From IMG/VR virus record IMGVR_UViG_3300008110_007313: 64,000 nucleotides of DNA, one strand, 5' to 3'. The position numbers and the translations under genes were made by a program. Origin of the DNA: a virus. Its lineage: Duplodnaviria; Caudoviricetes. Below, piece by piece: positions 82-59,860 of the stretch. The notes under the pieces were generated by a model. The model searched no databases. It saw nothing but the letters and a program-made list of their open reading frames with translations, and was not told the origin of the DNA. Position 1 is the stretch's first letter; each line of letters opens with the position of its first letter.

Positions 82-1086
82 TCAGCAGTTCCATTTACGC
101 AGGGCCAGAGCCTTGCGTGTGGGCTTGCCGTTGGGCTTTTTCATTGGCCCTTTGACCCCTGACATTCTAGCGCAGAAACTCTTACGGCGTTTGGCAGCTT
201 TTGATCCAGGCTTGAGTTTTGATGGTTTGGTAGTCACTGCCATTTGTAATTTTGAACCTGGGTTCTCTCTACGATAACTGGCCACACCTTTGGCGTTGAG
301 TCCACCTTTTTTGCTCTTGCCTTCTTTTCTGCGCCAGGCCGCTGTTTCATACAGCACATTGTCCGGAAGTGCTTCAAAACTTTCCCATACCAGATCTTCA
401 CTCACGCGATTCTTTTGGGCCATTTCTGACACTAGATCTTCCATGGCTTCGAACATCTCATCCACTTCCGGATCTACTTCGTCTGATGCTTCTTCTGAGT
501 ACATGTAGTCCCACACAGTGACCAACATTGATTTGGCCACAGCAATCTTTTCCTGACACCATTCAGGCAAGTTATCACCGCTTTGAATTAACTCATCAAT
601 GCCTTCTACAGCACGGCTCAGTGTTTCAAGGTTATTGTCGGCCATGCCTGCTTCGTCATCGTATTCAGGATTGTAGTCTTCTGCTATGCCTTGTTGACCC
701 GACATATCCATCAGTTGTCGAACATAGAAATTATAATGACCACGACGGCTGTTGTATTCTCTATTGCCCAGCACAGTCTTTAATGCGGCCACAGCATCAC
801 TTGCTTCTGAACCACGCATTATTTTTAGTGCGTCAGTCACAAGTGAATCCACACGCTGTGAACCTTCAGCTACCCCTTCTGACTTGTTGCCCCAGTTGCC
901 AGCACCTTTTTTGCGACACTGTACCAGTCGACCCGAAGCATACGCTGACGGCCATACCTTGGCACTGGCTTTGACTTTGTGATAGCAAGCATCTTTCTTT
1001 TCTGCCAGGACTAGGTCACTGAATGCAGGACCACCGCACTTAGGGCAAGTCATTTGAGATTCGTTTACAAGTTGATTGATTTTCAT
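82..1086 (-). CDS. Modular putative internal head protein with basic Cys-containing modules (DUF5872/DUF6321-like)
   Basis: N-terminus MKINQLVNE; modules DACYHKVK..VWPSAYASGRLVQCRK and AAWRRKEGKSKKGGLN..KSFCARM..LRKWNC each start after a hydrophobic-x-E site; contains GVAEG/GIAED. Confidence 0.6.
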   Translation of the reverse strand: MKINQLVNESQMTCPKCGGPAFSDLVLAEKKDACYHKVKASAKVWPSAYASGRLVQCRKKGAGNWGNKSEGVAEGSQRVDSLVTDALKIMRGSEASDAVAALKTVLGNREYNSRRGHYNFYVRQLMDMSGQQGIAEDYNPEYDDEAGMADNNLETLSRAVEGIDELIQSGDNLPEWCQEKIAVAKSMLVTVWDYMYSEEASDEVDPEVDEMFEAMEDLVSEMAQKNRVSEDLVWESFEALPDNVLYETAAWRRKEGKSKKGGLNAKGVASYRRENPGSKLQMAVTTKPSKLKPGSKAAKRRKSFCARMSGVKGPMKKPNGKPTRKALALRKWNC

Positions 1087-1430
1087 TTTTTCTTTGTGGC
1101 CACGTTGATGGCTGCTCCTTTGCGATTGGCGTCAGGATCTTGACGACGTTTGCGAGCCGCTGCACTTGCACGGCCTTTTTTGCCCAGGGCATGTGCCTTG
1201 GCTTGTGGTAAACACTTGGGTTTGCCTTCTGATTCTGAATCACGAGCACAGTCTCCACGGATTTTGCCGTCTGGACCAAATCGCACCCATTTTTGTTTGA
1301 ACCACTTGCGCAGATCTTCTTCAAGGTCTGCTTCGCTGATCTTTTTGCAACTGCCTGGTGAGTATTCAGCTGTGCCTGGCACACGCCGATAGCCCTTCCA
1401 ACAAGATTCCAGTATTTCTCTGTATCTCAT
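1083..1430 (-). CDS. Small basic putative internal head protein
   Basis: MRYREILE; CWKGY..GSC mini-module; DLRKWFKQKWVR..KPKCLP module; ATGA overlaps with both neighbours. Confidence 0.6.
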   Translation of the reverse strand: MRYREILESCWKGYRRVPGTAEYSPGSCKKISEADLEEDLRKWFKQKWVRFGPDGKIRGDCARDSESEGKPKCLPQAKAHALGKKGRASAAARKRRQDPDANRKGAAINVATKKK

Positions 1431-1699
1431 CGGGTTGCACTTTCAAAAATTTTTCTTTGTTCGCCGTACCAGTCTTGCCAGCCGTCTCTGCGAGCCGAAC
1501 ATTCATAGTAGGTGGCATAATTTTTCACAACCACACGTAGAAGATCAGTGATTGCAGTTTCAGTGGGCAACATCTGAGTCAACTCTGGGCAGCTTTTCAT
1601 CAGCTCCGGCGGTGCATCAGGAAATTTTTGCTTGACTGGGACTACAGTAGAGCAGGCTGACAAGATCACGACAGTCAATAACAAAGCCATGCTTTTCAT
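1427..1699 (-). CDS. o-spanin (Rz1-like lipoprotein)
   Basis: Lipobox LSAC after signal peptide, Pro-rich KFPDAPPELMKSCP, directly after i-spanin-like gene. Confidence 0.75.
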   Translation of the reverse strand: MKSMALLLTVVILSACSTVVPVKQKFPDAPPELMKSCPELTQMLPTETAITDLLRVVVKNYATYYECSARRDGWQDWYGEQRKIFESATR

Positions 1700-2208
1700 T
1701 TTTTGTCTCCCTGTGCTGCACGATTCAGAATGGCCGCTGCATTGTGAGCATCTATCACCGCAGCTGGTACAGGGCAGTTTTCAATGTATTTGATAACTTC
1801 CTCACGCTTGATTCTTTCAGGGCCTTCTACCATTACTTCTTTGGTGTTCCATTTATCAATATACTTGATAATTTCTTCGCCTTTTTCTCGCACCACTCGG
1901 GTTTTTTCTACCACACGAGTTTGCACTTCCACATTGGTCTTGGCACTGCGAGCCTCAGCTTCGGCAACCTTTAGTTCCATTTCGGCCACACGCTGTCGCC
2001 ATTCAGATTCTACTGAATAGCCACCACGTAGGTACACGCCCAGCGCCAACAGCACAATGCCAGCAATCTTGAACGGCAGTTGATACTGCCAAATTACAGG
2101 TATGCGATGCGCAAACAGGCCAGCCACGGCCAAGATCACACCCAGCACAAGTATAGAATTAACTGCCCATAAAATGGCAGTGTCGGGGAGAAAATGTAAG
2201 ATCCACAT
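1696..2208 (-). CDS. i-spanin (Rz-like)
   Basis: N-terminal TM helices, then coiled coil and C-terminal C-x-V-P motif; late TAAATA at 2214-2219. Confidence 0.7.
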   Translation of the reverse strand: MWILHFLPDTAILWAVNSILVLGVILAVAGLFAHRIPVIWQYQLPFKIAGIVLLALGVYLRGGYSVESEWRQRVAEMELKVAEAEARSAKTNVEVQTRVVEKTRVVREKGEEIIKYIDKWNTKEVMVEGPERIKREEVIKYIENCPVPAAVIDAHNAAAILNRAAQGDKK

Positions 2209-2216
2209 GCCTGTAT

Positions 2217-2795
2217 TTAGTAACCAAAATCAAGATTACGTTGCTTTAGCTTTTGCCAGGTCTGTGTGTATGTTGCAAACTCAGTGTGTTGGTACTGTTC
2301 TAAATTTTCTCGCATGAAACTAGAAAAATCATCCTGGCCAGTGTCAATGCAGAACACCTGATCTGCCCACCAATCTACCGTGGTTTGATTGTAGTATTGC
2401 CAGTGATGTTCCAGCGCCATGTTCATGGTATGATCTAACCCATGCTCTAGGATTTCTGGCCGATGCAGGTGTTGAGTCCAGACTTGCCAGCAGCGATTAT
2501 AACTAGGCGCAAAATGACTTTTGATTTTGATAATTTGTCGACCTGGAAAATGCTGAAATAGCAGTTGGGTGTCAAGGCAGTGTGTAAGCTCAATGAGATT
2601 GTGTCTTGACTTCAGTTGAGTTGACTCTTTGGGGTAGGGCCTGGTATCGGGATCCTGGTAGTTGATTTCTGGAGTTGGGTCTGGCCCTGAGTGACTGTGT
2701 GCGTGTTGGTTGTGACGCCATTGTTTTTGCAGAAGATACCTGGCCAGTCGATTGCCCCCACTGCCGGGAAAATAAGCAATTACGCAGGCATTCAT
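2217..2795 (-). CDS. Sulfotransferase-like/P-loop-like protein
   Basis: Start moved to ATG 2795 (ATGA overlap with upstream stop); N-terminal IAYFPGSGGNRL motif. Confidence 0.45.
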   Translation of the reverse strand: MNACVIAYFPGSGGNRLARYLLQKQWRHNQHAHSHSGPDPTPEINYQDPDTRPYPKESTQLKSRHNLIELTHCLDTQLLFQHFPGRQIIKIKSHFAPSYNRCWQVWTQHLHRPEILEHGLDHTMNMALEHHWQYYNQTTVDWWADQVFCIDTGQDDFSSFMRENLEQYQHTEFATYTQTWQKLKQRNLDFGY

Positions 2796-3868
2796 GAGTA
2801 GTAGTAAACAGACTGATCGCGACTGGGAAACAGATCCACAGGCGAATCTTCTCTGCGTATGTCCAGAGTCAAACAATGAAGTCCGCCATCCCAGAATGTT
2901 CTAGTACGAAATGGCAAGCTGTGCGCAGTGATTCCAAATTTTTCCAAGGCTCTAAATACAGCTTCGTTTTCTCCCAGCATGAGCACATTTTTTTCGTCAA
3001 CAACCAAGCAGTTGACTTCAAAGTAAGTTTCTGTATAATTGCCCACCCAGTCTAGTGCATGTTTGATCACATGATCATTAAATGCTTGATTATTACTAGC
3101 GCCGGCAAGCCAAAATTTACCATTGGCTCCAGGAGTATTTCTTCCATGTTGATTGTTTGAAAACTCCGGCTTTGCAATATTGATCTGTTCCCAGCCAGGA
3201 AATGTTCGATCATAGTCTGAAAAATAACGGCTGGTCAGCAGTAGCCCGGGCTTGATTGCAGCAAAACATGCGTCAACATGCCCGCCGTTGTTCAACAGAT
3301 GCAAACGACTGTCAGCAAAATACGGTTTTATTTTTTGATCAAATTCTTGTTGCAATAGATCAATTTGACTGTTTCGTTGTACGTGAAACACATCAAGATA
3401 AAGATCCTTGCCGACTCTCACAGTGTTTGCGCCGCTGAGACTGCCCAGGTGTTCGAGTCTGATTTCTGGTATCACCTGTGATCCAGCATCAGCAGCATAA
3501 CGGTCAAGTGCTGGCTGCCAAGCTTGGGCCATCCATTCAGGATAAAACAATTTGTTTCCGTGCGCTAAAAAATGATCTCTGGGGGTAATCTGCGGCTTCA
3601 GCAAGGTAGTGGGATGATGCGGATGCCCGTCGGGAGATATGAAATCATCTATTTTGTGATACTCAGGCCGCACTACATCGACTCCAAATTCCTGGAGTTT
3701 ACTCTGGATCGTGTTGAGATCTGCCTGAGTTTTTTCAGTGAGTTCATAAAACACATCTCGAACCTGAGACTCAAGGTGATCATAAAAATGGCTGGGGTAA
3801 ACATCTCCCAGCCATACTTCTTTCAGCTTGCCCCAGTTGGTAAAACTATTAACCAGTGGTGTTGACAT
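2792..3868 (-). CDS. Amidinotransferase (glycine/inosamine-phosphate amidinotransferase family)
   Basis: NSFTNWGKLKEVWLG, PRDHFL, GHVDAC, WDGGLHCLTLDIRR (catalytic Cys motif). Confidence 0.85.
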   Translation of the reverse strand: MSTPLVNSFTNWGKLKEVWLGDVYPSHFYDHLESQVRDVFYELTEKTQADLNTIQSKLQEFGVDVVRPEYHKIDDFISPDGHPHHPTTLLKPQITPRDHFLAHGNKLFYPEWMAQAWQPALDRYAADAGSQVIPEIRLEHLGSLSGANTVRVGKDLYLDVFHVQRNSQIDLLQQEFDQKIKPYFADSRLHLLNNGGHVDACFAAIKPGLLLTSRYFSDYDRTFPGWEQINIAKPEFSNNQHGRNTPGANGKFWLAGASNNQAFNDHVIKHALDWVGNYTETYFEVNCLVVDEKNVLMLGENEAVFRALEKFGITAHSLPFRTRTFWDGGLHCLTLDIRREDSPVDLFPSRDQSVYYYS

Positions 3869-4526
3869 CGGAATTCCTTTTCAATGTATTTAAGAATTCC
3901 TGTGTTTGGGCGGTTTTAATTCCAGTAACTTGCAGTGTGGCTCTAGGCACATGCCCTGCATTGGCTGTGGCATGTGGTACATTGACCCAATCAAATGTTG
4001 AAACATCGCCTGCACGCCAACCAGTCCAGGCATAGTTGCCATAACTCCAGAAATGTCCTTGCTGCCAGTCTGTGAGCTGTACAAAATAGCGTACCACTTG
4101 GCTGGGATCAGCCGGCATCCATTTTTCCAGCTTGTCTAAGTGCAAGTTCCACACTTGTCCAGGATGTTGCACATGTATGCGGGCCATGCTTTTTTCCAAG
4201 CCAAATTGATCAGCAATGCGCTGAAACACCGGCGCTAGATCATAAGTCAAGTTTGTGACCACGTAGTCGCGCCCATAGCCTTGCTGTTCTAGGTCATGGT
4301 CTTCTTGATCGTACTCTTCTGTGGCACGTTTTAATGGATCTGACTCGCGACCTCGAGTACGCCAGGTCACAGATTTTGATACAGCGACCGCAGCAGCTAG
4401 TTCCGCAGTCCAGTCTGGCTCGATGTGTCCTAGGTGTTGCACAGTGTCCCAGCGTGGATCCTGTTGTGTAGTATCAAAATGATATTGGCTGCGGGCTCGG
4501 GTTATTTCCCAATTTGATTGTGTCAT
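3849..4526 (-). CDS. Fe(II)/2-oxoglutarate oxygenase (cupin fold)
   Basis: LHLD..VPHATAN..RATLQVTG: HxD..H triad plus Arg. Confidence 0.75.
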   Translation of the reverse strand: MTQSNWEITRARSQYHFDTTQQDPRWDTVQHLGHIEPDWTAELAAAVAVSKSVTWRTRGRESDPLKRATEEYDQEDHDLEQQGYGRDYVVTNLTYDLAPVFQRIADQFGLEKSMARIHVQHPGQVWNLHLDKLEKWMPADPSQVVRYFVQLTDWQQGHFWSYGNYAWTGWRAGDVSTFDWVNVPHATANAGHVPRATLQVTGIKTAQTQEFLNTLKRNSDVNTTG

Positions 4527-5197
4527 ATTACTGTTACCTCAATATCGTTGTTGGTGTAATTTTGTCTGTAACTGCTGTCTGGCCAGGCAATGTTTAATGC
4601 ATTACATAATTCCAAATTAGTGCGCACCTGTTTTGATCCGCGGTGTTTGTAATTCCACATAGTGTCAGTGATACCTTGATTTTGTTTCTTGATACACGTG
4701 GCCATGTGCTTTAAATCTTGATAATATTCACGGTATAATGGATACGTTATATCAAAATGGCCACATTTTACCCACCAACCCAGGCAAGAATCATTGCTGC
4801 GATGAACCAACACAATGGCACAATCCATGAACTGTTCACGCAAGTGTCGGATATTTTGTTCATACGAGAAGATGTGGCTTTTGATGATTCTAACTCCTTG
4901 GGAGTCTTTGCTAAACGGGTAATCAAAGCTGGCCTCCAATTGTTGTCGGTCGAGTATGGTGAGATCCTCGGGCAAAGGACAAGCCATGCCAGGATCCCAA
5001 TATGCACCCAAATGCATAAGTTCTCGCTGACCTGATGCATCGTGGTAATACGTCCACTCGTCTCTGTAGTCTGAACGATCTATCGATGGCGAGTAATAGA
5101 TGTTTTTTACAACACTGCTCCATTTTGAGCCTGGAGCGCCGGCTACAAAGACATATTTCATTTGTTGGGAGTAATTCGTCGAGCAATAGGTTGCCAA
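4523..5197 (-). CDS. Sulfotransferase-like/P-loop-like protein
   Basis: YVFVAGAPGSKWSSV, IIKSH and IVLVHR motifs; true start probably at MKYVF (about 5161). Confidence 0.5.
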   Translation of the reverse strand: MATYCSTNYSQQMKYVFVAGAPGSKWSSVVKNIYYSPSIDRSDYRDEWTYYHDASGQRELMHLGAYWDPGMACPLPEDLTILDRQQLEASFDYPFSKDSQGVRIIKSHIFSYEQNIRHLREQFMDCAIVLVHRSNDSCLGWWVKCGHFDITYPLYREYYQDLKHMATCIKKQNQGITDTMWNYKHRGSKQVRTNLELCNALNIAWPDSSYRQNYTNNDIEVTVI

Positions 5198-6120
5198 GTT
5201 TGTTGCAGTCGAGCCATGCTTGCTCGCACTCCGGCAGCTGAATGTTCTGTAGGTGTGATATACATCATGTTTTCACGAAACTTGACAGCGGCTTCAGCTG
5301 ATTGAATAGCAGGCACAAACTGATCACGGTACCATGCTTGAATTTCAGGGGGTGTGCCTGGTGGCAATACCATGTTCCAGCAACCGTGAATGCTGAGTCC
5401 AGGCGCTGCTTTGCTCATCAAAGGAATATGCTCTAGCCCAGGCAAGGCACGTGTGTCTGCAATGCCAATGAACTTGAGACGTCCTGCTTGCACATGTGGA
5501 TAGCCCACAGCCACTGGTGTTACACCAAACTCTACGTGCCCGCCCATGACATCTAGTAGAGCCTGTGCTGGGCCTTTGTACATGGCAGTTTGAAGGTTGT
5601 CGCTACCTGCTACACTTACTTTGTCTACAAGATATTCCACTGCCAGCTTGTGTCCACCACCGCCAATGGCCACAGTCATTCGTTGTCGATTACGAATGGC
5701 TGCAACAAATTCTTCTGGTGTGTTGATCTTGCTTGACGGATGTGCCCAAAATGCCAGGGGTGATCTAGCAATGTTGGCAATGGGTTCCAGATCCATGGGG
5801 TTGTACTTGATCATGTCCTTGAACCAGATTTCGGGAGTGACCCAGTTTGATTGGCAAGCAGGCACACTTATGGTGTGACCATCACGTGGTGTTGTGACAA
5901 AATGATTGATAGCAATGTTGCCGTCAGCTCCTGGGCGATATTCAGAATTGAATTTGGCTCCAGTTTTACGTTCCACAATGTCTGCAACGATTCTAAACGA
6001 GATTTCGTTGCCAGCACCAGGACCATTGGGGAATATCACCGTAACAGGTTTAGTGGGCTGCCAAGCCAGCGCAACAGTAGGCGCCAAAACTAAGGCTGCA
6101 AGTAATTTTTTCATTGACAT
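5158..6120 (-). CDS. Bug/TctC tripartite tricarboxylate transporter substrate-binding protein
   Basis: Signal peptide then WQPTKPVTVIFPNGPG, YRPGADGNIA, YKGPAQALLDVMGGHV; SD AAGGA. Confidence 0.9.
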   Translation of the reverse strand: MSMKKLLAALVLAPTVALAWQPTKPVTVIFPNGPGAGNEISFRIVADIVERKTGAKFNSEYRPGADGNIAINHFVTTPRDGHTISVPACQSNWVTPEIWFKDMIKYNPMDLEPIANIARSPLAFWAHPSSKINTPEEFVAAIRNRQRMTVAIGGGGHKLAVEYLVDKVSVAGSDNLQTAMYKGPAQALLDVMGGHVEFGVTPVAVGYPHVQAGRLKFIGIADTRALPGLEHIPLMSKAAPGLSIHGCWNMVLPPGTPPEIQAWYRDQFVPAIQSAEAAVKFRENMMYITPTEHSAAGVRASMARLQQTWQPIARRITPNK

Positions 6121-6212
6121 AGGGTTCCTTAAATAGTATACTTGATTTACAGCAACAGAGCAAAAATTTTTATGGTCTGTTGTAAAATTCTCTTTTATTT
6201 ATAAAATTTTTT

Positions 6213-6941
6213 ATGAACACCAAAATTTTTAATCTAATCACAAAAAATTTGCAACAGGCATTTGCTTTGCCCAAGTATGCAGATATTGTGATCAACGCAG
6301 ACACTGTAGTCAACACACTGCCTTGGACCCCGGCACGCTACTCAAAGTTCAAAGACGCTGTGGAAGCAGAACTTAGCTTGCCCTGCGAGTATCGTGGCAC
6401 CCTGCGTGAAATTACAGACGACCTAAGCGAACGCTACACACATAGGTTTTTTGCTGAGATTTGGAAACCACGCACAGGCGACTATGAACACACGGGCTGG
6501 GAATTGGCTGACGAAGTTAACAAGCTGAATCCAGAGAAAGTATTAGATGTAGGCTGTGGATATCATCCTTTTAAAGGACGCATACACAATCTAATTGGTA
6601 TTGATCCCTACAACAACTGTGCTGACTATGAAGTGGACATCTTGGACTACAAGGTCAAGCCCGAAAGCTACGATGTTATTATTGCCCTGGGATCAATCAA
6701 CTTTAACTCACGAGATGAAATTGAATCACGATTCGCGCACTGTGTGACGTTGTTGAAATCCGGCGGCCGGTTCTTTTTACGAGCCAATCCAGGGATAACA
6801 CACAAGACAGGGCCTTATGTGGAAATCTTTAATTGGACTTTTGAAGTTGTAAATGAATTTGCCGAAAAGTACAATTTAAATCTAGACACATTCAAGAAAG
6901 ATGCCAATGATAGATTGTATTTTGTCTATACCAAACGATGA
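6213..6941 (+). CDS. Class I SAM-dependent methyltransferase with N-terminal carrier-protein-like domain
   Basis: VLDVGCG motif I, LIGIDP, YDVIIALGSINF, LLKSGG. Confidence 0.8.
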   Translation: MNTKIFNLITKNLQQAFALPKYADIVINADTVVNTLPWTPARYSKFKDAVEAELSLPCEYRGTLREITDDLSERYTHRFFAEIWKPRTGDYEHTGWELADEVNKLNPEKVLDVGCGYHPFKGRIHNLIGIDPYNNCADYEVDILDYKVKPESYDVIIALGSINFNSRDEIESRFAHCVTLLKSGGRFFLRANPGITHKTGPYVEIFNWTFEVVNEFAEKYNLNLDTFKKDANDRLYFVYTKR

Positions 6942-7157
6942 TTATTTGCCGGCAGCTCTTAGATTAGCCCCATTATTGAAGCTGGGACTGTAAGGACTGT
7001 TGCCCGGAATGTTGCCCTTGCGAGCTGACCAGTAGTAGCCTGCACGATGCCCCGAACAGTCCTTGGTACAAGGTGAGCCCAGAAAACTCAACTCATCCAA
7101 CTGTTCTTCTTGACTTTTTTTGATCTGGCGCCGACGCATAAATTCACGCAGTCTCAT
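6942..7157 (-). CDS. Small putative internal head protein
   Basis: MRLREF..QLDE then FLGSPCTKDCSGHRAGY. Confidence 0.55.
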   Translation of the reverse strand: MRLREFMRRRQIKKSQEEQLDELSFLGSPCTKDCSGHRAGYYWSARKGNIPGNSPYSPSFNNGANLRAAGK

Positions 7158-8329
7158 AGTCCAGCCAACTCTTTGAGTCTGCGCACTGTTTCGCCCATGG
7201 TACCAGTCCTAGGCTGATCAAACATATCTGCTTGTCTATCAGCTCTGGCACGACTGATGGTAGGCAGCACATCATCGCTGCCAGCAGGCAATTCCACAGG
7301 TTCGTTGTACATATAGGTCACATTAGAATTGGGATCCTTGGTGACCTTGGGCACTCGTGGACCACGGTCCACTGTGGTAGGCAGCGGTTGATCACGCATA
7401 GGAGCAGTCTGAGTTGCAGCTGGTTGACTCTTGGCAGCAGGTTCAACTGGGGGCTTGATTCCAATTGTAGGAGGAGCGTATGTGTTAGTGTTGGCCGGCT
7501 TATTGATTTCTGTGTTGCGTTGATCTTTGTCTTTTTCTCTTTTCTTGCGACTGTCAGATCGGCGTGTTTGTCCAGATCCTGCAAACGCAGAAGGTTCTTT
7601 GTCGGCCTTGGGCAAATCAACCTGGCTTCGACTCACAGGTTCTTTGTTACCGCCCTGGCGCAACTGACGCTCCATGCCATCTATTTCGCGATTGAGTTGA
7701 TTGAGTTCGTTGTCGAGACTGTCATTTTCTTGATCTAGATTGGCGATCTGTTGGCTTTGTTTTTTGCTGAGATCACGTAGGCGATCTAGAGTTTGATCTT
7801 GACGAGCATTGGTTTTGTTCTGTGCACCAAAACTTTGGTCAGTGGTAGTTTGGTTTTCTATTTCGTTGCGTATAAACGCTTCTATGTCAGATCTAGCTGA
7901 CGGATACTTGGCATAGGCCTGACGCAGTGCCACACTGAGTTTGGGGTCTTTTACTCCTGATCTGCTGAGATCAGGTTGTTCTTTTTTTTCGCGTTCAAAC
8001 AGCCCGGCCTGTCCTGCACTCATGTTCACAGGCGTAACATTGAGATTGAGTCGGTCAGCCAAGGCCAAGAACTTGTCGGACCTGCTCATGGTGTTGTACA
8101 CAAAGTCTCGTTTGTCACTCATGTCCTGTAGCTGATTGTAGTGATCAGCCAAGGCATCCACTTCTGGATCGCTGAGTTTGATCACATCGTCGCCAAAGGT
8201 CAGCGTCAAGGTAGCGGCAGTTTTACGCCCTTGATAAAAATCAACCAGCATTTTGAAATTGGCGCCGCCAAGTGCTTTGCTGCCTACGGCTCCGTATTCT
8301 AACAGTGTAACAACGTCTGTGATTTTCAT
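7154..8329 (-). CDS. Putative core/internal head protein with coiled coil
   Basis: MKITDVVTLLE; heptad region; ends RRLKELAGL; TATAAATA 5 nt upstream. Confidence 0.55.
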   Translation of the reverse strand: MKITDVVTLLEYGAVGSKALGGANFKMLVDFYQGRKTAATLTLTFGDDVIKLSDPEVDALADHYNQLQDMSDKRDFVYNTMSRSDKFLALADRLNLNVTPVNMSAGQAGLFEREKKEQPDLSRSGVKDPKLSVALRQAYAKYPSARSDIEAFIRNEIENQTTTDQSFGAQNKTNARQDQTLDRLRDLSKKQSQQIANLDQENDSLDNELNQLNREIDGMERQLRQGGNKEPVSRSQVDLPKADKEPSAFAGSGQTRRSDSRKKREKDKDQRNTEINKPANTNTYAPPTIGIKPPVEPAAKSQPAATQTAPMRDQPLPTTVDRGPRVPKVTKDPNSNVTYMYNEPVELPAGSDDVLPTISRARADRQADMFDQPRTGTMGETVRRLKELAGL

Positions 8330-8333
8330 AATT

Positions 8334-8789
8334 TTATTTATAAGCAGTGCGATTGATGTTCAAGCGTTGCTGAAGTCTTTGTATAGCAGTGTCGGCTTTT
8401 TGTATCAAACTGGCATAGTTGTCTTGATCGGCACCTCGCATGTACAATGCTAAGTCTGTGTCAGCTTCTAGTCCAGGGTTCATGAGTCCGCGTTTTTCGG
8501 CCGCTGTTCGCAGTTTTTCCAGCTGTTGCATTTTGTCAATGGCTGCGTTTACTCCAGACAACTTGGTTTTGAGTTCTGAATAGCTGTATTTGCTATAATC
8601 TGTAGGTGGAGTAGGTGCCGGGCGTCCAGCCTTGGCAGTCATAAATCGTTGAGCCATGTTTTTCTCAAAATCCTGTTGCCAAGCAGCTACGTCTTGATCT
8701 CGTTGTTGTGTGATAGCACCACGAGCCTGTTGCAGAGCAGCCAGGGCTTCAGGTTTGAGTGCTTCTTGTAAAAATTCACTGGCTCTCAT
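8334..8789 (-). CDS. Putative internal head protein
   Basis: MRASEFLQEA, similar to T4 capsid-targeting sequence MKTYQEFIAE. Confidence 0.55.
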   Translation of the reverse strand: MRASEFLQEALKPEALAALQQARGAITQQRDQDVAAWQQDFEKNMAQRFMTAKAGRPAPTPPTDYSKYSYSELKTKLSGVNAAIDKMQQLEKLRTAAEKRGLMNPGLEADTDLALYMRGADQDNYASLIQKADTAIQRLQQRLNINRTAYK

Positions 8790-9397
8790 TTTTTGTCCCG
8801 TGGTTGAACAGCAGTGGGCATGTTCTTGTATCTACGTGTGTTGGGGTCGTATACTGTCTTCATGGGACCAGCACCAGCCAACTTCTTGAGTCGGTTGACC
8901 ATGTCATCAAAGTCTGCAGGGTCGTGACGTCCACCAATTTTTTCCTTGGCACCTTCCATGTTGGCAATAGGTGCCACAGGAGCATCGGCTACATCCTTTT
9001 CTAACTGGCTGATGTCGCCTTCGTCCATTTCGTCAGGTTGTGCGGTGCTGTGAATTCTCCCGGTACCAGCGGTTGGAACAGCACCACTGGTACGAGCAAA
9101 AGGATCTGCGGGCAAGCGTTTGCTTTGTCCTTTGAAAATATCATCTCGACGAGTTTTTGATCCGTCACCGCCATAACCTGTGGCAGTTAAGTCTCGGCCG
9201 TATTCGCTGCCGCGATGAGCATTGTAGTAATCATCTCTGTCATAGTTGCCTTCCGCCACACCTTGCTTCTTGAGAATATCCAGTGCGTGTTTTTCCATCT
9301 GTTTTTTGGTAATAGGTTTACCGGGTGCTTCCTTACCTTTGAAATAATCAGAACCTTTTTTCACGACCTGGTTGTGGTGCTGACTTATCCATTTCAT
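8786..9397 (-). CDS. Modular putative internal head protein, probable C-terminal part of a frameshifted gene
   Basis: GVAEG and RLKKLAG motifs; lies in +1 frame to 9348..9971 across an A6 run. Confidence 0.5.
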   Translation of the reverse strand: MKWISQHHNQVVKKGSDYFKGKEAPGKPITKKQMEKHALDILKKQGVAEGNYDRDDYYNAHRGSEYGRDLTATGYGGDGSKTRRDDIFKGQSKRLPADPFARTSGAVPTAGTGRIHSTAQPDEMDEGDISQLEKDVADAPVAPIANMEGAKEKIGGRHDPADFDDMVNRLKKLAGAGPMKTVYDPNTRRYKNMPTAVQPRDKK

Positions 9398-9971
9398 TCA
9401 AGCCTTCCGCCACACCTTTTTTCATTTTGTCTAACTGCGTTAGTCTTGCGAGCTCTTGATCAGTCAAGGGGTTGTCTAACTTGGGCACCTTGGGTTTGAC
9501 GTTGGTGGGGTAGTATGCTGTTTTTGCACGATTTTTTGTACCAGGAATTTGTTGGTTGGCCACACGCACGCCTTCATCAACATCATCTTTTGCCGTACCT
9601 TGAGACTTTTCAGCACGAGCAATTCTATTGCCTAGGCTGTTTAACTCATGTTCCATGGCGCGAGCTTGACGCTCGCGATCAGTCAAGTTCTGTTCACGAT
9701 CTGCATACTGCCAATTATTGCCGCCCAGTGAGTCATACTCATTTTTCATTTGTTCGTATTTGGCTTTTAGTTCTGGCAATTGAGCTAGATCTGCCTGGGC
9801 AGCATTAGAGTCTGCCTGTGTTCGTTCTGCATCGCGCTGTGCCATGCGTTGACGACTGCGCTCACGTTCTTGTTCTGGTGTTCCAGCAATGCGAACATTC
9901 ATACCCCGGGCGCGGGCCATTGCTGCAAATTGGTCAGCTAGATTTTCTGTTACAACTTGATTTATTTTCAT
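9348..9971 (-). CDS. Modular putative internal head protein, probable N-terminal part
   Basis: MKINQVVTEN; VDEG, GVAEG and LNEM sites. Confidence 0.55.
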   Translation of the reverse strand: MKINQVVTENLADQFAAMARARGMNVRIAGTPEQERERSRQRMAQRDAERTQADSNAAQADLAQLPELKAKYEQMKNEYDSLGGNNWQYADREQNLTDRERQARAMEHELNSLGNRIARAEKSQGTAKDDVDEGVRVANQQIPGTKNRAKTAYYPTNVKPKVPKLDNPLTDQELARLTQLDKMKKGVAEGLNEMDKSAPQPGREKRF

Positions 9972-10510
9972 TATCTAATTCCTGCTAGACTTTGTAGCGC
10001 ACGACTTTCATCTGTGGGTTCGTGTATCTTTTTAGGAGCAATACCAGCAGCTGATCTAACATCATTTAGATCTTCGTCGTGCACACGACGATATTCGTTG
10101 GGCGTGCATGGCACAATCTTGGCAAACGCATCTTCGTCCCAGTCATAGTTTTGGTCTTGATAGCGCCAACGCCAGTCGCTGGGTTCAAATTCTGTAAGGG
10201 TGCCAAGGTCACTCAGCAGGTCCTGGATTTGCCCGGCCACTGCTGATCTACGACGCAATTCAACATACACTAGATAACGACTGGGTTTGATTTCACCAGG
10301 ACTACGGTCTGCGTCCAGCACAAAGTCATAGCCCTTTTCAAACCAGCTTACTAGGTCCTTGGCAGCTTGCAAATCTCTTACAAAAAAGCTCACAACCACA
10401 ATGTCAGCATCATCACCCATTTTTGAAGTAAACTCATCAATGTGAATGGTAGGCTTCATCATGCCATCTAGGTCTTTGTACTGTAGGCCTTCTAACAAGT
10501 GTTTGAACAT
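9971..10510 (-). CDS. Hypothetical protein, possibly head assembly
   Basis: MFKHLLEG; ends LQSLAGIR; coupled to both neighbours. Confidence 0.6.
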   Translation of the reverse strand: MFKHLLEGLQYKDLDGMMKPTIHIDEFTSKMGDDADIVVVSFFVRDLQAAKDLVSWFEKGYDFVLDADRSPGEIKPSRYLVYVELRRRSAVAGQIQDLLSDLGTLTEFEPSDWRWRYQDQNYDWDEDAFAKIVPCTPNEYRRVHDEDLNDVRSAAGIAPKKIHEPTDESRALQSLAGIR

Positions 10511-11103
10511 TATATGGCTCCTGGTGCTGCGGGCTGTTGCGGTGTGGCTGCTAGGTTCTGTTGAGCAGTATCTGCTGCTGTATCGCTTTGATTTTCCTGT
10601 TTGTCTAGATCCTGCTCATAGGCTTGATCTAGTTCGTCAAGATCAATTTCTTGGTCTTCCATCTCAATTGATCCAGTCTTGATGTCATTCATCAGACTCT
10701 TGGGCATGATAATTTCTACCAACCATACAGGTTTTTCAACGATCTTGGCTTTTTTAGTGCCAGGTATGTAGTCTGAAGGATCTGTGATGCGAATAGGAAT
10801 TTTAATCATTTTCTTTTGATAGTTGACGTCACAGTCAAAAGGCAACAATCTACGGGCACCACGTGGATCAGGCATGAGTTTTTCGGGCCACATAAATGTA
10901 CAGGCCACACGATATTTTGTGATTTCGGGACCGGCCACAAGCTCGCCAATCTCCCAGTTTTTAAAGGCATACATATCTACTTCGTCCAACACACGCTCAA
11001 AATCTAGTAGCGTGGTAATTGTGCCCTCGCTCATGTAGATATCGCGGATATTGTCGGCGACTTGCCAGTAGTCTTCGTGGTTTTTAAATAGGTCTCGATC
11101 CAT
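10510..11103 (-). CDS. Hypothetical late protein
   Basis: 197 aa globular-looking ORF; TAAATA at 11111-11116. Confidence 0.65.
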   Translation of the reverse strand: MDRDLFKNHEDYWQVADNIRDIYMSEGTITTLLDFERVLDEVDMYAFKNWEIGELVAGPEITKYRVACTFMWPEKLMPDPRGARRLLPFDCDVNYQKKMIKIPIRITDPSDYIPGTKKAKIVEKPVWLVEIIMPKSLMNDIKTGSIEMEDQEIDLDELDQAYEQDLDKQENQSDTAADTAQQNLAATPQQPAAPGAI

Positions 11104-11266
11104 GGTTGTATATTTACCACAACAGGACTCAAGCTGGATTTTGACATCACAGGGTCAACAGCCTAATACTTATGCTGAAAAACCAAAGAAATCTGTCCAC
11201 ATAATTCTCTGATTCACTGTACCGTAAATATCCTTGTCCAACTAACGGACACAAGGAGAAAACACT

Positions 11267-12004
11267 TTGAGTAGAAACCGCGCTGCGAAAGCACAAAACA
11301 AACGTATGGTACAGACACAAGAGAACACTATCAGCTTTAACCAAGCACCTAAAGCGGCACAGCGCCGCATAGACCTGATCCCTCGAACACGAAATCAGGA
11401 ACGCTTGGTGCTGGCTCTTTTGGACGCTGACCAACACATAGTTGTTACCACTGGTCCTGCTGGCACTGGCAAAACGTATCTAGCCATGCAAGCAGCAGTA
11501 AAAGCATTAAGAGAAGGAGATTGCGATCGCATAGTATTAACACGCCCAGCGGTTGGCGTAGAGGGAGAACAACATGGTTTCCTCCCGGGCAATTTAGTTG
11601 CTAAAATGGAACCTTGGACTCGTCCTTTGCTAGACGTCATGCGGGAATACTACCGCCCTCAGGACATTGTAGCCATGATAGAAGATCAGGTTGTGGAAAT
11701 TGCGCCTCTGGCATTCATGCGCGGCCGCACCTTTAAAAACTCGTGGATTATTGCCGACGAAATGCAAAATGCAACTCCGGCACAGGCCAAGATGTTAATG
11801 ACTCGCATTGGAACGAACTCTAAGATTGTGATCACAGGTGATGTTGAGCAAGCTGATCGTAACGCAGACGACAACGGCTTGATGGACCTGGTAACAAGAT
11901 TGCAATCTTTCCCAGTGAACGGTATCACGGTTTGCCCCATGGAAAACCGTGATGTTCAGCGACACAAGATCATAGGAGAAGTGTTACGACTCTATAGTAA
12001 ATAA
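11267..12004 (+). CDS. phoH: PhoH family protein
   Basis: GPAGTGKT, LTRP, GFLPG, PLAFMRGRTF, DEMQN, GDVEQAD; TTG start with SD AAGGAG. Confidence 0.95.
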   Translation: MSRNRAAKAQNKRMVQTQENTISFNQAPKAAQRRIDLIPRTRNQERLVLALLDADQHIVVTTGPAGTGKTYLAMQAAVKALREGDCDRIVLTRPAVGVEGEQHGFLPGNLVAKMEPWTRPLLDVMREYYRPQDIVAMIEDQVVEIAPLAFMRGRTFKNSWIIADEMQNATPAQAKMLMTRIGTNSKIVITGDVEQADRNADDNGLMDLVTRLQSFPVNGITVCPMENRDVQRHKIIGEVLRLYSK

Positions 12005-12009
12005 GGGCC

Positions 12010-12672
12010 ATGCTGGCCCAACTTGCCCACCCTAATTTAATCGTAGTTCACTACAGACCATATCAGGGTGGCAAGTTTTTCATCAACTGCCTTGCTCATC
12101 ACTACAAAGTAATGCCTCAGCTGGATACCAGCTGTTACCTGTCTGGTCAAGATTTCAAAATACAACAAATTCACAACAGTTTGCCCCCGCCTGAACACCT
12201 ACGCAAGTGGGAAAAATTCGAGTTGGGTTGCAGATCTTTTTGGGGCGGTAAGTTGACTGAATTGTTGCAACGTACACAACAACCTAACTCAGTGTCAACT
12301 GAATTGTTGAGTCAATACCGTTGTTTCATAGTCAATCACATGACCAATCCAGAACGCCTTGATCTAATTGATCTGAATCTGCCAATGGCCAGACACATTG
12401 TACTCACCAACGCTGATGAGTTTTGCAAGACGTCAATTGAGAAAAAAGCACCTCTGGACTATGATCCCAAGTTGTCAACAGGATCATTTGAAAGACACAT
12501 GTTTACAAACCGCAATGCATTTTTTCTAGATGTAGATTCTGCATATTCTAACTCAACACAATTGATTACGCAACTGCATCGGTGTTTGATCTGGCTGGGC
12601 GTGGATACTGAACTAGATCCAACAGTATCTCAGTTTATTGATCAATATCGTTGGCTTCATGGCCTACAATAG
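12010..12672 (+). CDS. Sulfotransferase-like/P-loop-like protein
   Basis: VVHYRPYQGGKFFINCL motif resembles 2217..2795; TAAATA 6 nt upstream. Confidence 0.45.
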   Translation: MLAQLAHPNLIVVHYRPYQGGKFFINCLAHHYKVMPQLDTSCYLSGQDFKIQQIHNSLPPPEHLRKWEKFELGCRSFWGGKLTELLQRTQQPNSVSTELLSQYRCFIVNHMTNPERLDLIDLNLPMARHIVLTNADEFCKTSIEKKAPLDYDPKLSTGSFERHMFTNRNAFFLDVDSAYSNSTQLITQLHRCLIWLGVDTELDPTVSQFIDQYRWLHGLQ

Positions 12673-13270
12673 TTTGATATGCTTCGCGCCAGTTTTTGAC
12701 CACTGGATAGTTGCAGCAATGGTGCATGTTGTGTCCGTGTTCCATGAGCATGCTGTTTAGACCCATGCTATAGCCCACGTCAGCGTTTTCAGGCTTGTCT
12801 TCAATCCACCAGCAACCTGAACCTGCGTATGGCTCCAGTGCTTCGTTTTTATCAGCACCTGTATCCAAGCACACAATTGATTCAAACACTGTTTCACCAA
12901 ACATCTTGCGCAGATTCATTTCTCGCAGTCGTTGTGCATTGATATCCCGGCTTAGACTTGTGATACAGTGAAACACGTAGCCATGCTCTTCGTGCAGACG
13001 CTTGACATAGTACATGGCATCACGCAAGGGTGGCAAAAACCCAATGGCCGCCGATTCATTGAACATTCTAATCAGCTTTTTGCCCTGCTCTCGAGTAATG
13101 CCATAGCGTTCACCGATGTCATAGACAAATGCAGACCCGGGCTGTTGTTCATGCCCGTGTTCTTCCATCCAGATTGCAAAGGCATACTCCCAGTTCAACA
13201 GCACGCCGTCGGCGTCAACTAGGATTGTTTGCGTTGGGTTGTACTTCAGATTCTGATTTGGTTTCTTCAT
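12635..13270 (-). CDS. HAD-superfamily 5'(3')-deoxyribonucleotidase-like phosphatase
   Basis: ILVDADGVLL (motif I), CITS (II), K (III), WIEDKPEN (IV). Confidence 0.85.
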   Translation of the reverse strand: MKKPNQNLKYNPTQTILVDADGVLLNWEYAFAIWMEEHGHEQQPGSAFVYDIGERYGITREQGKKLIRMFNESAAIGFLPPLRDAMYYVKRLHEEHGYVFHCITSLSRDINAQRLREMNLRKMFGETVFESIVCLDTGADKNEALEPYAGSGCWWIEDKPENADVGYSMGLNSMLMEHGHNMHHCCNYPVVKNWREAYQTIVGHEANDIDQ

Positions 13271-13532
13271 TTTTTACTATCTCATAACCGTTTTCGTCAA
13301 ACAGTCGCTTGATGATACTTTCGTAGTGTTGCATGTAGTATTCTACAATGCGGTGGAAATTTTTGGGTACTTGAACACCGCCCATGTGACATTTTTCTAC
13401 CTGGAGTGTTTTAAAGTCCAAGATCACATTGGCAGTTTGCAGGTCTCTTGTTTTTAGCCGTTTGGACACTTGCATGGCTTCGTCTAGTCGGCCATCCGCT
13501 TTGCGGTAATAGGTTAGAATAAAATATCTCAT
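13215..13532 (-). CDS. Hypothetical protein
   Basis: ORF 7 nt downstream of a consensus sigma70 -10 box. Confidence 0.65.
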   Translation of the reverse strand: MRYFILTYYRKADGRLDEAMQVSKRLKTRDLQTANVILDFKTLQVEKCHMGGVQVPKNFHRIVEYYMQHYESIIKRLFDENGYEIVKNEETKSESEVQPNANNPS

Positions 13533-13604
13533 AACGTTATTGTAACAATTTTCTAATAAAATGTCAATGCTTCTACTAAATTTAGAGCATTATAAATCAA
13601 CAGT

Positions 13605-14225
13605 TTAACACACTAGTTTTTTGAGAACACTGTTTTTTTCAGTCCAGGTTGTAAACGTTTGATCAAACTTATCAAAATCTCTAATAGGTGTTTGTGTTAA
13701 TTGCTGTACTACATTGATCAAGTTCTGCCTGTTAAAAAAATCAGCCAATGCAATGGCTTGCATGTTGGGCACGGTTTTCCAGATATGAACCTGCTTTAAC
13801 CACAGTGTAGAAAAAAATTGTCGAGCATTGTGCTCAGTTACTCGTTGTTGAGCCCAAACGGGCAAAGTTTGTTTGTGAACCTCAACAAAATGCATTAGGC
13901 TGTTTTGATGCCGTTTGGCAATAAACACATCGATGATACCAACTGCGGCCGACTCAGGAAAGTCTATGTAATAAAATTTCTCAGCCAGTTCTACAAACCA
14001 ATCAAAATAATAGTGCGAATTCTCAACAGGATCAACTTGAGACCAATCTAAGATGCTAGGAACTACATTTTTGTAATCTACACAGATATCTCTAAAATAA
14101 CGTCGGTTGTGTAACACCAACCCAGTGTCTGTAATATTACATTCTACAGAAGTATTCAAATCGAGTTGTTGGAGGCACAGTGTTTTTAAAAAATCACCCC
14201 CAGTTCCTCCCACATAACAAATCAT
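13605..14225 (-). CDS. Sulfotransferase-like/P-loop-like protein
   Basis: Start moved to ATG 14225 (ATGA overlap); MICYVGGTGGDFL. Confidence 0.45.
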   Translation of the reverse strand: MICYVGGTGGDFLKTLCLQQLDLNTSVECNITDTGLVLHNRRYFRDICVDYKNVVPSILDWSQVDPVENSHYYFDWFVELAEKFYYIDFPESAAVGIIDVFIAKRHQNSLMHFVEVHKQTLPVWAQQRVTEHNARQFFSTLWLKQVHIWKTVPNMQAIALADFFNRQNLINVVQQLTQTPIRDFDKFDQTFTTWTEKNSVLKKLVC

Positions 14226-14776
14226 TGATTGAACACGGTGCATAAAAATTTGTATAAAAATTGATGTGTTTTTTCGCCAATGTGCGTTCGCGAAACATCC
14301 CAATCTAAATTTTTAATCATTGGGTAGCACTTTGGATAAGGCAACGGTTTTCCACAAAATACATGCACAAAACTATAAGGGACCAACTGCTGATAGTAAT
14401 CGTTCAAACGTTCAGGATTTCGGTCCGACCAAACCACAGCCATTTTAACATGTGGAGCATAGAGATCAGAATTTAAAAAATTCTCAATGATTTGAAAAAT
14501 ATGTGCATTATCGTACAATCCGGATATACCATAGTTTTGAGAATTTTTAAACTTGCTAGCAAAGATTTTATCTTCGTCTATTCCAATGCCTAACACAAGG
14601 CTACACCCAAAAAAGGCATAGTCTGGCACACATTCAAAATTGTTAGAACTTCGGAATCCTAGATTGTTAAAACGATAAGTGACTGTTTGTGTACTGTCTT
14701 TTCCAAATGTGTTTACAGTTTTCCCATGTTGATTCCACATAGGAATCACTGGATTCTTTAGATTGTTATCTGACAT
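14222..14776 (-). CDS. SGNH-hydrolase-like protein
   Basis: YRFNNLGFRS..AFFGCSLVLGIG..NYGISG; start may be 14740. Confidence 0.5.
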   Translation of the reverse strand: MSDNNLKNPVIPMWNQHGKTVNTFGKDSTQTVTYRFNNLGFRSSNNFECVPDYAFFGCSLVLGIGIDEDKIFASKFKNSQNYGISGLYDNAHIFQIIENFLNSDLYAPHVKMAVVWSDRNPERLNDYYQQLVPYSFVHVFCGKPLPYPKCYPMIKNLDWDVSRTHIGEKTHQFLYKFLCTVFNQ

Positions 14777-15684
14777 AGCTCAATAAGTGTAGCACTCAAA
14801 TTGATTTCTGTGTCAGCCACTGAATTGTTGTTTACCAGCCCGTTGCGAATGATCACAATAGCTTGGTCTTGGCGCTCGGGAGTATCGCCCCATAGTTCTA
14901 AGTTATCGTACATCCAGCGAAAGATATCTTCAGCTTCTTCAGGATTGGCGTTTTGACACAGCAGTGTACGTGCCTGACGAATTTGTCCACGCTTGAACAA
15001 GTCCACAGCATCCAGCTTCCAGTCACGTGCTGAACGATCAGCTTCACCTGGCGGCACAAGTCGGCCTGTTTGGCTATTGAGTTGAACCAAGTTCAGACAT
15101 TTGCGCAGGTCTGGATAAGTGGCTTTGACATAACTGTCCAAGGTATCTAGTTCAAACTCTACACCTTCTGTGACTAACACAGTAGCAACTCTAGCAGTAA
15201 ACTCTGTGTGATCAGTTTTGGTAATGTGGAAGCCTTGACAGCGACTGTGAATAGGACTGATGATCTTGTGCGGATAGTTACATGTAAGAATGAATCGTAC
15301 AGTCTGCGAGTAATCTTCCATCAAATTACGCAGTGCAGGTTGCACTGAATCCTTGTTCATGTAGTCTGCTTCGTCAATCAGCACAACCTTGAACTTGCCA
15401 AATGGCATGGTTTGACAAAAGTTGATTAGCTTGTCCACCCATTCGATCTTACGTGCTTCTTTTGAACCGTTTGCATACATCACATCGTATTCGTCCACAC
15501 CCAGTTCATTGATCAGCATTTTGGCCAAGGTGGTTTTGCCTGTACCTGCTGAACCTGATAGCATCAAGTGTGGAACTGATCCGTCTTGTATCCATTGTTG
15601 TACTTGATCTCGTTGTGCCTGATCTACAAATACATAACCGTCTACTGTGTTGGGACGGTACTTCTCTACCCATAACTCTTTCAT
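14758..15684 (-). CDS. Sliding-clamp loader AAA+ subunit (T4 gp44/RFC-like)
   Basis: LWVEKYRP, GSAGTGKTT, IDEADY, FILTCNY, SRC motif. Confidence 0.95.
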   Translation of the reverse strand: MKELWVEKYRPNTVDGYVFVDQAQRDQVQQWIQDGSVPHLMLSGSAGTGKTTLAKMLINELGVDEYDVMYANGSKEARKIEWVDKLINFCQTMPFGKFKVVLIDEADYMNKDSVQPALRNLMEDYSQTVRFILTCNYPHKIISPIHSRCQGFHITKTDHTEFTARVATVLVTEGVEFELDTLDSYVKATYPDLRKCLNLVQLNSQTGRLVPPGEADRSARDWKLDAVDLFKRGQIRQARTLLCQNANPEEAEDIFRWMYDNLELWGDTPERQDQAIVIIRNGLVNNNSVADTEINLSATLIELCQITI

Positions 15685-15872: not shown

Positions 15873-15873
15873 T

Positions 15874-16384: not shown

Positions 16385-16385
16385 G

Positions 16386-16993: not shown

Positions 16994-17014
16994 AGTAATC
17001 TCCTTGGTAATTAT

Positions 17015-59799: not shown

Positions 59800-59860
59800 A
59801 AATTCTCCTATGTTAAGTAATGCGTTAGGATAAGTATAACATATTCTTCCGGAAAACACA

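Follow-up and report, generated by a model that had tools for sequence, protein, structure and literature searches.

Seven leader-bearing genes of an uncultured PA5oct-like jumbo phage as probable candidates for T4-type targeted, protease-cut head cargo

Introduction

Why should genes with unrelated products in a single phage genome begin with the same few amino acids? The question is raised by positions 82-10510 of IMG/VR virus record IMGVR_UViG_3300008110_007313, of which a stretch of 64,000 nucleotides was analyzed (the 64-kb window). An initial annotation had proposed that at least ten unrelated open reading frames (ORFs) of this interval share an N-terminal leader and, together with internal sites of the type hydrophobic-x-Glu, form a cargo system of polyproteins that are targeted to the capsid and cut by a prohead protease. 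Here we followed up this proposal by comparing the window with related genomes and known proteins. Seven late-strand genes, not ten, probably encode head-internal cargo that would be targeted and protease-cut in the manner of bacteriophage T4.

The window is DNA of an uncultured PA5oct-like jumbo phage, and the lineage has T4-like replication and head modules. The clamp loader is 50% identical to its counterpart in the 287-kb Pseudomonas jumbo phage PA5oct, the nearest cultured relative, and positions 9971-17533 are syntenic with 187.5-192.9 kb of PA5oct. The window has no close cultured relative, and a megablast search with 82-10510 against cultured phages gave no match. IMG/VR contains many relatives of the window, and three near-complete ones were compared in detail: G001 (332 kb), G004 (353 kb), and G002 (364 kb). 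Over positions 81-62838 the window aligns collinearly with G001 at approximately 65 to 89% DNA identity, except at 7.1-10.2 kb, where DNA similarity is absent. The cargo genes thus occupy a hypervariable island; the late region is otherwise conserved. Related-locus scans of IMG/VR with 8334-8789 and 9348-9971 found no relatives.

Results

The strict leader motif, an N terminus of the form M-[KR]-x-x-[EQD]-[FILV]-x-x-E, is present in 4 of the 97 window ORFs (82-1086, 8334-8789, 9348-9971, and 61402-62250), where 0.02 to 0.03 are expected from composition or from shuffled N termini. When the final Glu is dropped, the relaxed motif is found in seven ORFs versus 0.4 to 0.5 expected. Neither count was reached by any shuffle. 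Because the motif had been defined after the fact, we also trained a position matrix solely on the leaders of G001, G002, and G004 and then scored the window with it. The seven top-scoring N termini are exactly the seven of the motif type, followed by a gap in the scores; at a familywise 95% threshold four window N termini pass, as do none of 372 internal Met sites. The leader is also enriched genome-wide in relatives (7 versus 0.11 expected in G001, 7 versus 0.13 in G004, 2 versus 0.17 in G002, and 1 versus 0.11 in PA5oct), and the island of G001 has four leader genes in a row with bodies that are all different. Many leader genes begin with an ATGA that overlaps the preceding stop codon, which favors Lys or Arg at position 2 and leaves the rest of the motif unexplained.

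All ten N termini and all five internal sites that the initial annotation quoted are present in the sequence. Three of these N termini do not fit the leader, and the count is therefore seven: they belong to a superoxide dismutase (SOD; 29262-29810), the MRDLL... protein (59861-61405), and the MFKHLLE protein (9971-10510). The interval 82-10510 does not hold for all ten genes either, as three of them (starting at 29262, 59861, and 61402) lie outside it, and it encloses, besides the cargo genes, a spanin-like pair and an enzyme cluster that are described below. The unrelatedness of the proteins stands. In pairwise BLASTP comparisons of twelve proteins all E values exceed 0.05, and only the leader, the linker, and a C-terminal LAG motif match. 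Judged from their sequences, the leader-type proteins share their leader and are unrelated in their bodies.

The leader is conserved beyond the window. Relatives of the 82-1086 protein, clustered at 50% identity, have 144 representatives, of which 52 carry the strict and 84 the relaxed leader, and most leaderless representatives resemble fragments starting at an internal Met. The strict leader is found in 78 of 120 homologues of the GNAT-like 61402-62250 protein; its orthologues use either the subtype MRAxEFxxE or the subtype MKIxELxLxE, both of which also occur in the window, and relatives have MRAQEFITE where the window has MRAQEFATE. The capsid targeting sequence of T4 is MKTYQEFIAE (PMC8442874), in which targeting depends on residues 4 and 7 and processing on residues 8 and 10, with gp21 cutting after L/I-X-E (PMC9026906). 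Seven window proteins have a tag of approximately 10 residues that resembles the T4 sequence and ends in Glu, such as MRAQEFATE or MRASEFLQE.

A prohead protease of the T4 gp21 type is encoded by the lineage. PA5oct gp152 matches Peptidase_S77 (PF03420), the gp21 family, at 5e-24, and the S77 protease is present in all four near-complete relatives G001 to G004 (1e-23 to 5e-27, above the curated cutoff). The head module is conserved in the order portal, small protein, acidic core protein, protease, scaffold, capsid protein. In PA5oct the small protein adjoining the portal, gp150, starts with the leader MKINDIITE, followed by GYYNPADDSSAIAHK. The capsid protein of the lineage has YLKE/NASAG approximately 40 residues from its N terminus, which we take to be the position of the LTE/A maturation site of T4 gp23. 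In the PA5oct record, electrospray ionization tandem mass spectrometry (ESI-MS/MS) notes are attached to gp150, gp230 (MRLDEIQ), gp235 (RIKKLAGI), gp261 (an SOD homologue), and gp295. The PA5oct paper reports 93 virion-associated proteins among 461 coding regions and contains nothing on processing or targeting tags; neither there nor in the jumbo-phage review are such tags or linkers described.

The 82-1086 gene (minus strand, as are the other genes of the cargo cluster up to 10510) encodes a candidate mosaic cargo polyprotein of 334 amino acids (aa), with a leader, a Zn ribbon, basic, helical, and acidic modules, and DUF6321 (Pfam DUF6321 5e-22; PHROG 727/3477). Its leader MKINQLVNE (aa 1-9; 1060-1086) is of the strict type, and homologues have similar starts, such as MKITSIIAE, MKIDNIIAE, or MKFKDLTE. 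The basic module KKDACY...WPSAYASG (aa 30-74, charge +7; 865-999) starts after LAE and ends with SEGVAE. The helical module SQRVD...QQGIAE (aa 75-136; 679-864; predicted local distance difference test score approximately 90) is a cassette that is present or absent among family members, for example as a clean indel of P0001 (74-136) with the flanks KSEGVAE/ and GQQGIAE/. The acidic helical module (aa 137-247, charge -27; 346-678) ends with VLYE. The basic DUF6321 module (aa 248-334, +24; 85-345) starts after LYE, and the Pfam domain itself (PF19846) covers residues 256-332 with 78.7 bits versus a gathering cutoff of 28.5.

The 82-1086 protein has at least 8000 close relatives of 268 to 563 residues and, at E <= 0.001, 6584 cluster representatives, and the members of this family differ by whole modules. 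Module boundaries were scored on 116 unique clean indels with conserved flanks between family members, and 86 of these are flanked on both sides, in register, by [VILM]-x-E, compared to 4.5% of random intervals. (Boundaries taken from the ends of BLAST high-scoring segment pairs, or from all gaps of global alignments, were too noisy and were dropped.) Typical joints are KSEGVAE/G, QQGMAE/D, NKGVTE/G, and RAVPE/G. In distant representatives, [VILMFY]xE stands before the four modules in 30 of 34, 13 of 17, 56 of 86, and 111 of 141 cases, and a nonterminal DUF6321 is then followed by ES[IV]E. The first and the last of these counts concern LAE/KKDAC and LYE/TAAW, two of the internal sites that had been predicted, and both sites hold up. 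So does VAE/G, which recurs at module indels (KSEGVAE/G); when the window is translated in all six frames, GVAEG appears three times, always within the cargo cluster. The linker residues vary, with V, I, M, or L at P3 and A, T, P, E, or S at P2, and P1 is always Glu, a pattern that agrees with the L/I-x-E specificity of gp21-type proteases.

The modules are mobile as well. Of the 82-1086 protein, residues 1-74 correspond to the beginning of one G002 protein and residues 131-334 to the end of another, and proteins of the relatives with two or more linkers are nearly all leader-bearing, large mosaic proteins, or the scaffold. In the AlphaFold2 (AF2) model of the 82-1086 protein (local confidence 75.7, predicted template modeling score 0.34), confidence dips at 8-13, 69-74, approximately 131-140, and 254-258, which are predicted cut sites (E9, E74, E136, and near E247). 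Foldseek searches with this model gave nothing below E = 2 in the PDB, no match to a known effector, and among viral models only other DUF6321 proteins. The comparisons place the module boundaries at the linkers, and from this we infer cleavage at the same positions; similarly, the shuffling of modules is an observed pattern, whose mechanism would be exchange at the joints.

Part of the linker conservation is seen in the DNA. The 15-nucleotide (nt) sequence GGTGTGGCGGAAGGC, which encodes GVAEG, is identical in 6 of 13 GVAE linkers from four genomes (9248-9262 and 9402-9416 in the window, and in G001, G002, and G004), and a 37-nt repeat spans two window linkers (9233-9269 and 9387-9423). Together with the mosaic exchange of modules between genes and the ATGA starts that favor K/R at position 2, this would suit an explanation in which linkers and leaders act solely as cassettes for recombination and as flexible joints, in proteins that are uncut and need not enter the capsid. 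We consider this quite improbable. The amino acid pattern is kept where DNA and residues differ, always with Glu at P1, and it equals the specificity published for the family to which the protease of the lineage belongs. The leader agrees with the T4 tag residue for residue, the internal signals for the twin-arginine translocation (Tat) pathway described below require a free N terminus, and roles in recombination and in proteolysis are compatible with each other. We continue to read the linkers as probable protease sites.

A second short sequence is common to cargo and head proteins. The motif L-[KRQ]-x-L-A-G is found three times in the window versus 0.05 expected, always in the cargo cluster (7157-7189, 8873-8899, and 9974-10003). 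It ends the scaffold (DLKRLAGL, DIKRLAGL, or ELRRLAGIK) in PA5oct (84724-85830), G001 (319750-320844), G002 (261426-262520), and G004 (225198-226283). Further copies are found in mosaic proteins from the G001 and G002 islands and in PA5oct gp235. At 7157-7189 it forms the C terminus (...VRRLKELAGL) of the candidate cargo protein encoded by 7154-8329 (391 aa, leader MKITDVVTLLE, C-terminal RRLKELAGL). In a 17-member alignment of this family (A1), M1, K2, I3, and E11 and R384, L388, A389, G390, and L391 are invariant, and between these ends conservation is much lower, especially in the C-terminal half. Four homologues extend past the motif with P[VI][NT]E/A and an extra domain of 110 residues, and in 8786-9397 the motif is internal. 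The LAG motif is probably a second handle of some cargo proteins on the assembling core or shell.

Leader and LAG motif might instead be degradation tags that are read by the phage Clp system and set protein levels. The C-terminal LAG-L loosely recalls ssrA-type LAA tags, and N termini of the type M-basic-hydrophobic recall one class of ClpX N motifs. In addition, two of the ten listed genes lie between ClpP homologues (59176-60045 and 62253-62825), and PA5oct encodes ClpX, ClpA, and ClpS. We rank this explanation low and find it hardly credible, as the motif can also stand away from the C terminus (inside the 8786-9397 product, and ahead of the 110-aa domain in four family members) and ends the scaffold, which acts inside the prohead. 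The T4 capsid tag fits the leader far better than any Clp motif, and degradation tags would leave the linkers and the Tat signals unexplained.

The Tat signals were found in relatives of the 82-1086 protein. Ten distinct Tat-type signals (D/E-M/L-S/T-RRGFL-...-AQA, in the general form xRRGFLxGxGAAA...AQA) follow [VILM]-x-E linkers, all ten of them 3 or 4 residues after the linker Glu and at protein positions 7 to 414. They are carried by mosaic proteins of G001 (161462-162670 [L098:1462-2670] and 162670-164073 [L098:2670-4073]) and by the homologues P0058, P0138, P0145, P0169, P0178, P0215, P0217, P0224, P0232, and P0260. Pfam TAT_signal gave 22.2 and 19 bits for two of them versus a cutoff of 22.7. 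The window proteins themselves have no Tat signal, and the signals are seen only in relatives. Since a Tat signal works solely at a free N terminus, the signals behind the linkers are independent, indirect evidence of linker cutting. Both the LAG motif common to scaffold and cargo and the internal Tat signals directly after the linker Glu are new here.

Packaged and processed proteins could also serve head assembly only, as extra scaffold or core parts or as DNA counterions that are degraded or retained, and not act as host effectors. The LAG motif common to scaffold fits such a role, as does the resemblance of the acidic and basic modules to T4 core peptides and basic internal proteins (PMC9026906). 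Furthermore, Pfam and PHROG scans of the island proteins at 82-9971 found no enzymatic or peptidase domain, and the 82-1086 protein has no structural match to a known effector. However, even close relatives differ strongly in this hypervariable island, as is typical for conflict genes and not for parts used in assembly. Leaders are also found on a GNAT-like enzyme, and the Tat signals after the linkers in relatives point outside the capsid. A role confined to the head seems unlikely to us.

The other genes of the cluster show the same combination of leader and modules in varying form. The 115-aa protein encoded by 1083-1430 has the leader MRYREILE and, from aa 39, a basic module after LEE (+15). 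Its predicted site LEE/DLRK is matched by ELEE/NLRDWF in the G002 orthologue, and PHROG 23735 (an 81-position profile) aligns from exactly there. The 71-aa protein encoded by 6942-7157 (leader MRLREF...) has a module LSFLGSPC... after QLDE that recurs in relatives as the C terminus of a 220-aa deaminase-like G001 protein and of a 118-aa G002 protein, in both cases after L-x-E. The G001 protein (164061-164723) has a cytidine-deaminase-like zinc motif (HGERAAI...SPCSERM), and there too the module follows QLDE. The 151-aa protein encoded by 8334-8789 has the strict leader MRASEFLQE (matrix score 10.3). The 207-aa protein encoded by 9348-9971 has the strict leader MKINQVVTE, a module after VDE/G (aa 134-185), and a GVAEG linker (aa 186-190); this module shares 81% identity with the one that ends G001_158973-160166, where it follows VEE/G, and VDE/G, another predicted site, is thereby supported.

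The ORF at 8786-9397, whose start is uncertain, has a GVAEG linker (aa 46-50) and a RLKKLAGAGPMKTVY module. This C-terminal module also ends the leader-bearing protein G001_161462-162670 and the protein G002_54027-55862, the latter of which matches the window 82-1086 protein in its N-terminal 73 aa. The ORF overlaps the preceding gene, 9348-9971, by 50 nt in a different frame, between two copies of the 37-nt repeat encoding GVAEG (9298-9423). Possibly, this arrangement is one frameshifted gene, two genes, or a second gene that starts at an internal Met (MEKHALDILKKQGVAE/G).

The best leader of all, MRAQEFATE (matrix score 15.5), is on the 282-aa GNAT-like protein encoded on the plus strand at 61402-62250, for which Pfam Acetyltransf_1 scores just under the cutoff. 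The adjoining plus-strand gene, 59861-61405, encodes a 514-aa protein with the N terminus MRDLL..., outside the main leader; its G001 counterpart keeps MRDLLDLLDSLTE, and otherwise only the last 42 aa are similar. This gene pair (59861-62250) is flanked by the two ClpP homologues, of which one is 63% identical to PA5oct ClpP and the other is distant. As called, the ORF at 59176-60045 has an N-terminal extension of approximately 95 residues and overlaps 59861-61405, and its start may lie further in.

Two more of the listed proteins are not of the leader type. The Fe/Mn SOD (29262-29810, minus strand) has an N-terminal extension of approximately 20 aa, as the Pfam Sod_Fe_N match starts at aa 22 with profile position 5. 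The extension is conserved in relatives and has LVE/A and KLE/T; in the PA5oct homologue gp261 (172979-173527), which carries an ESI-MS/MS note, the site is ISIAE/A, with AASSVK... after the Glu. It is possible that the SOD is a candidate cargo protein with a different leader type. The conserved 179-aa protein encoded by 9971-10510 belongs to PHROG 13138 (annotated as a virion structural protein) and has LLE/G near its N terminus and LQSLAGIR at its C terminus; orthologues keep [LF][LF]E[GA] and L/MQ[SA][LA]AG[IL], and the PA5oct homologue gp296 has no ESI-MS/MS note.

Two groups of genes within the island are not part of the cargo system. In the spanin-like pair (1427-2208), a lipoprotein whose lipobox is LSAC (PHROG Rz-like spanin) is combined with a membrane protein. 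The cargo genes are also interrupted by an enzyme cluster (2217-6941), which G001 and G004 share in part. The T4 late-promoter box TATAAATA gave no signal in the window, with 2 matches versus 1.6 expected.

Discussion

We propose that the leader is a T4-type propeptide of 8 to 11 residues (M-K/R-x-x-Q/E/D-hydrophobic-x-x-E) that would direct the protein into the prohead scaffold core, where the S77 (T4 gp21-type) prohead protease would remove it after its Glu. Several cargo proteins would be strings of small, independently folding modules on linkers of the form G/S-[VILM]-[A/T/P]-E, and these polyproteins would be cut inside the head into separate pieces, which for 82-1086 would include acidic (-27) and basic (+7 and +24) modules. 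The motif L-K/R-x-L-A-G-L/I, as in the scaffold C terminus, may give some cargo its second handle on core or shell. The linkers, conserved at the DNA level as well, would mark the points at which genes, and also phages, exchange modules with each other. After cutting, the basic pieces would most likely stay with the packaged DNA and leave alongside it at infection, and in relatives some released pieces would be left with an exposed Tat signal, leading to their export into the periplasm of the host. Our confidence in this fate of the pieces, the least certain part of the proposal, is lower than that in targeting and cleavage.

Comparison supports the cargo interpretation of the initial annotation through the conserved leader, the match to the T4 tag, the S77 protease of the lineage, the module boundaries, the Tat signals, and the ESI-MS/MS notes of PA5oct; it does not extend to the three of the ten proteins without the leader.

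Several points weigh against the proposal. Packaging, cleavage, and ejection are approached by an indirect route, and the prohead protease gene is not in the 64-kb window. The PA5oct genome has no homologues of the island 82-9971, so that the cultured model lacks these cargo genes. Two of the four PA5oct proteins with the relaxed motif have no ESI-MS/MS flag, and the flag is weak evidence, because the mass spectrometry list of PA5oct also has evident nonstructural enzymes (ribonucleotide reductase, ligase, ClpP, and FtsH). Given the identical linker DNA and the 37-nt repeat, the linkers are probably recombination joints too, and this may explain part of their conservation. Some members of the 82-1086 family have no final leader Glu (MTLTEFHQSCP). 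DUF6321, present in 536 cultured phage records, is also found in Pelagibacter podophages and in a 33.7-kb Synechococcus phage, and an S77 protease is not known from T7-like podophages. Literature on DUF6321/DUF5872 and on the cyanophage gene-cluster label GC0119 offered nothing useful. Finally, when the G001 major capsid protein was modeled in a complex with the C-terminal 45 residues of the 7154-8329 protein, the score was 0.00, an outcome that speaks neither for nor against binding.

If the rules for tag and linker hold, the packaged, probably injected protein set of a very abundant uncultured jumbo-phage clade becomes readable from sequence, and capsid targeting of the kind best studied in T4 and its close relatives would be a device that T4-like jumbo phages use in general. 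The mosaic polyproteins suggest how phages could evolve cargo fast, by swapping cassettes at joints that may be sites of both proteolysis and recombination. More tentatively, and on balance doubtfully, the capsid could be a programmable loader, in which a T4-type tag, a scaffold-mimicking C-terminal L-K/R-x-L-A-G-L, and protease-cut linkers would accept any module, and cutting would unmask Tat labels by which injected pieces would be re-exported to the periplasm. If true, this would be the phage equivalent of a viral polyprotein plus an effector-delivery system. Both the C-terminal motif that resembles the scaffold end and the cryptic Tat signals offer concrete hypotheses that are cheap to test. 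A cultured relative, PA5oct, has the head module, the protease, and the leader type in common with the lineage.

Other phages also fill their heads with proteins that are cut after Glu. The inner-body and ejection proteins of phiKZ, 201phi2-1, and SPN3US are cut by a diverged gp21 homologue at S/A/G-x-E or A-x-E. As proposed for the window phage, these are jumbo phages with many proteins packed with their DNA, and cuts fall after the Glu of a three-residue motif, often at several sites per protein. In contrast, the window belongs to another lineage and has a hydrophobic P3 as in T4, short T4-like tags where the phiKZ group has propeptides of more than 100 residues, and mosaic cassettes. The polyvalent proteins (Iyer et al. 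2017, PMC5512222) resemble the proposed cargo in that they are multimodular, delivered with DNA, highly variable in their modules, and thought to be cut into units. They are proposed to process themselves by an embedded metallopeptidase (PMC5512222), whereas the island proteins have no peptidase or enzyme domain and consist of small nonenzymatic modules with joints of the prohead-protease motif.

The same basic modules (DUF6321, KKDACY...WPSAYASG, and W..G..G.C...KPKC) are found in a 530-aa protein of Synechococcus phage S-E7 that is annotated as "structural protein, T4 GC0119"; the basis of the "structural" label could not be traced. This protein differs in starting with MPLVNQEAE, with no leader, and in its less regular joints VAE/K, QME/G, and QNE/S. 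The DUF6321 proteins of aquatic phages differ from the window case in that the domain is also found in small podophages. Scaffold C termini and encapsulin cargo-loading peptides are short, near-C-terminal peptides that tie scaffold or cargo to the interior of an HK97-fold shell. The LAG motif resembles them by analogy only, with no sequence relation, and its binding is putative.

The closest known system is that of T4 IPI, IPII, IPIII, and Alt. There as here, a tag of approximately 10 residues, with a core Q/E-E/D-F-hydrophobic-x-E, is found on unrelated, often basic proteins, the lineage has a gp21-family (S77) protease and the hydrophobic-x-Glu motif, and variable genes stand behind a constant tag. 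The mature parts, however, have no sequence similarity to the T4 internal proteins (IPs) or Alt, and Pfam and PHROG scans of all twelve proteins gave no IP or Alt family. Each T4 IP receives a single cut, beside the tag, and Alt is also cut near its C terminus (PMC9026906, PMC8442874), whereas several proteins of the window lineage string together shuffled modules, up to five or more of them, with the motif at each joint. The second, scaffold-like C-terminal motif and the Tat signals that predicted cuts would expose in relatives are further differences from T4. The predicted system thus works like the T4 internal-protein set, but with mature parts that are not homologous to it.

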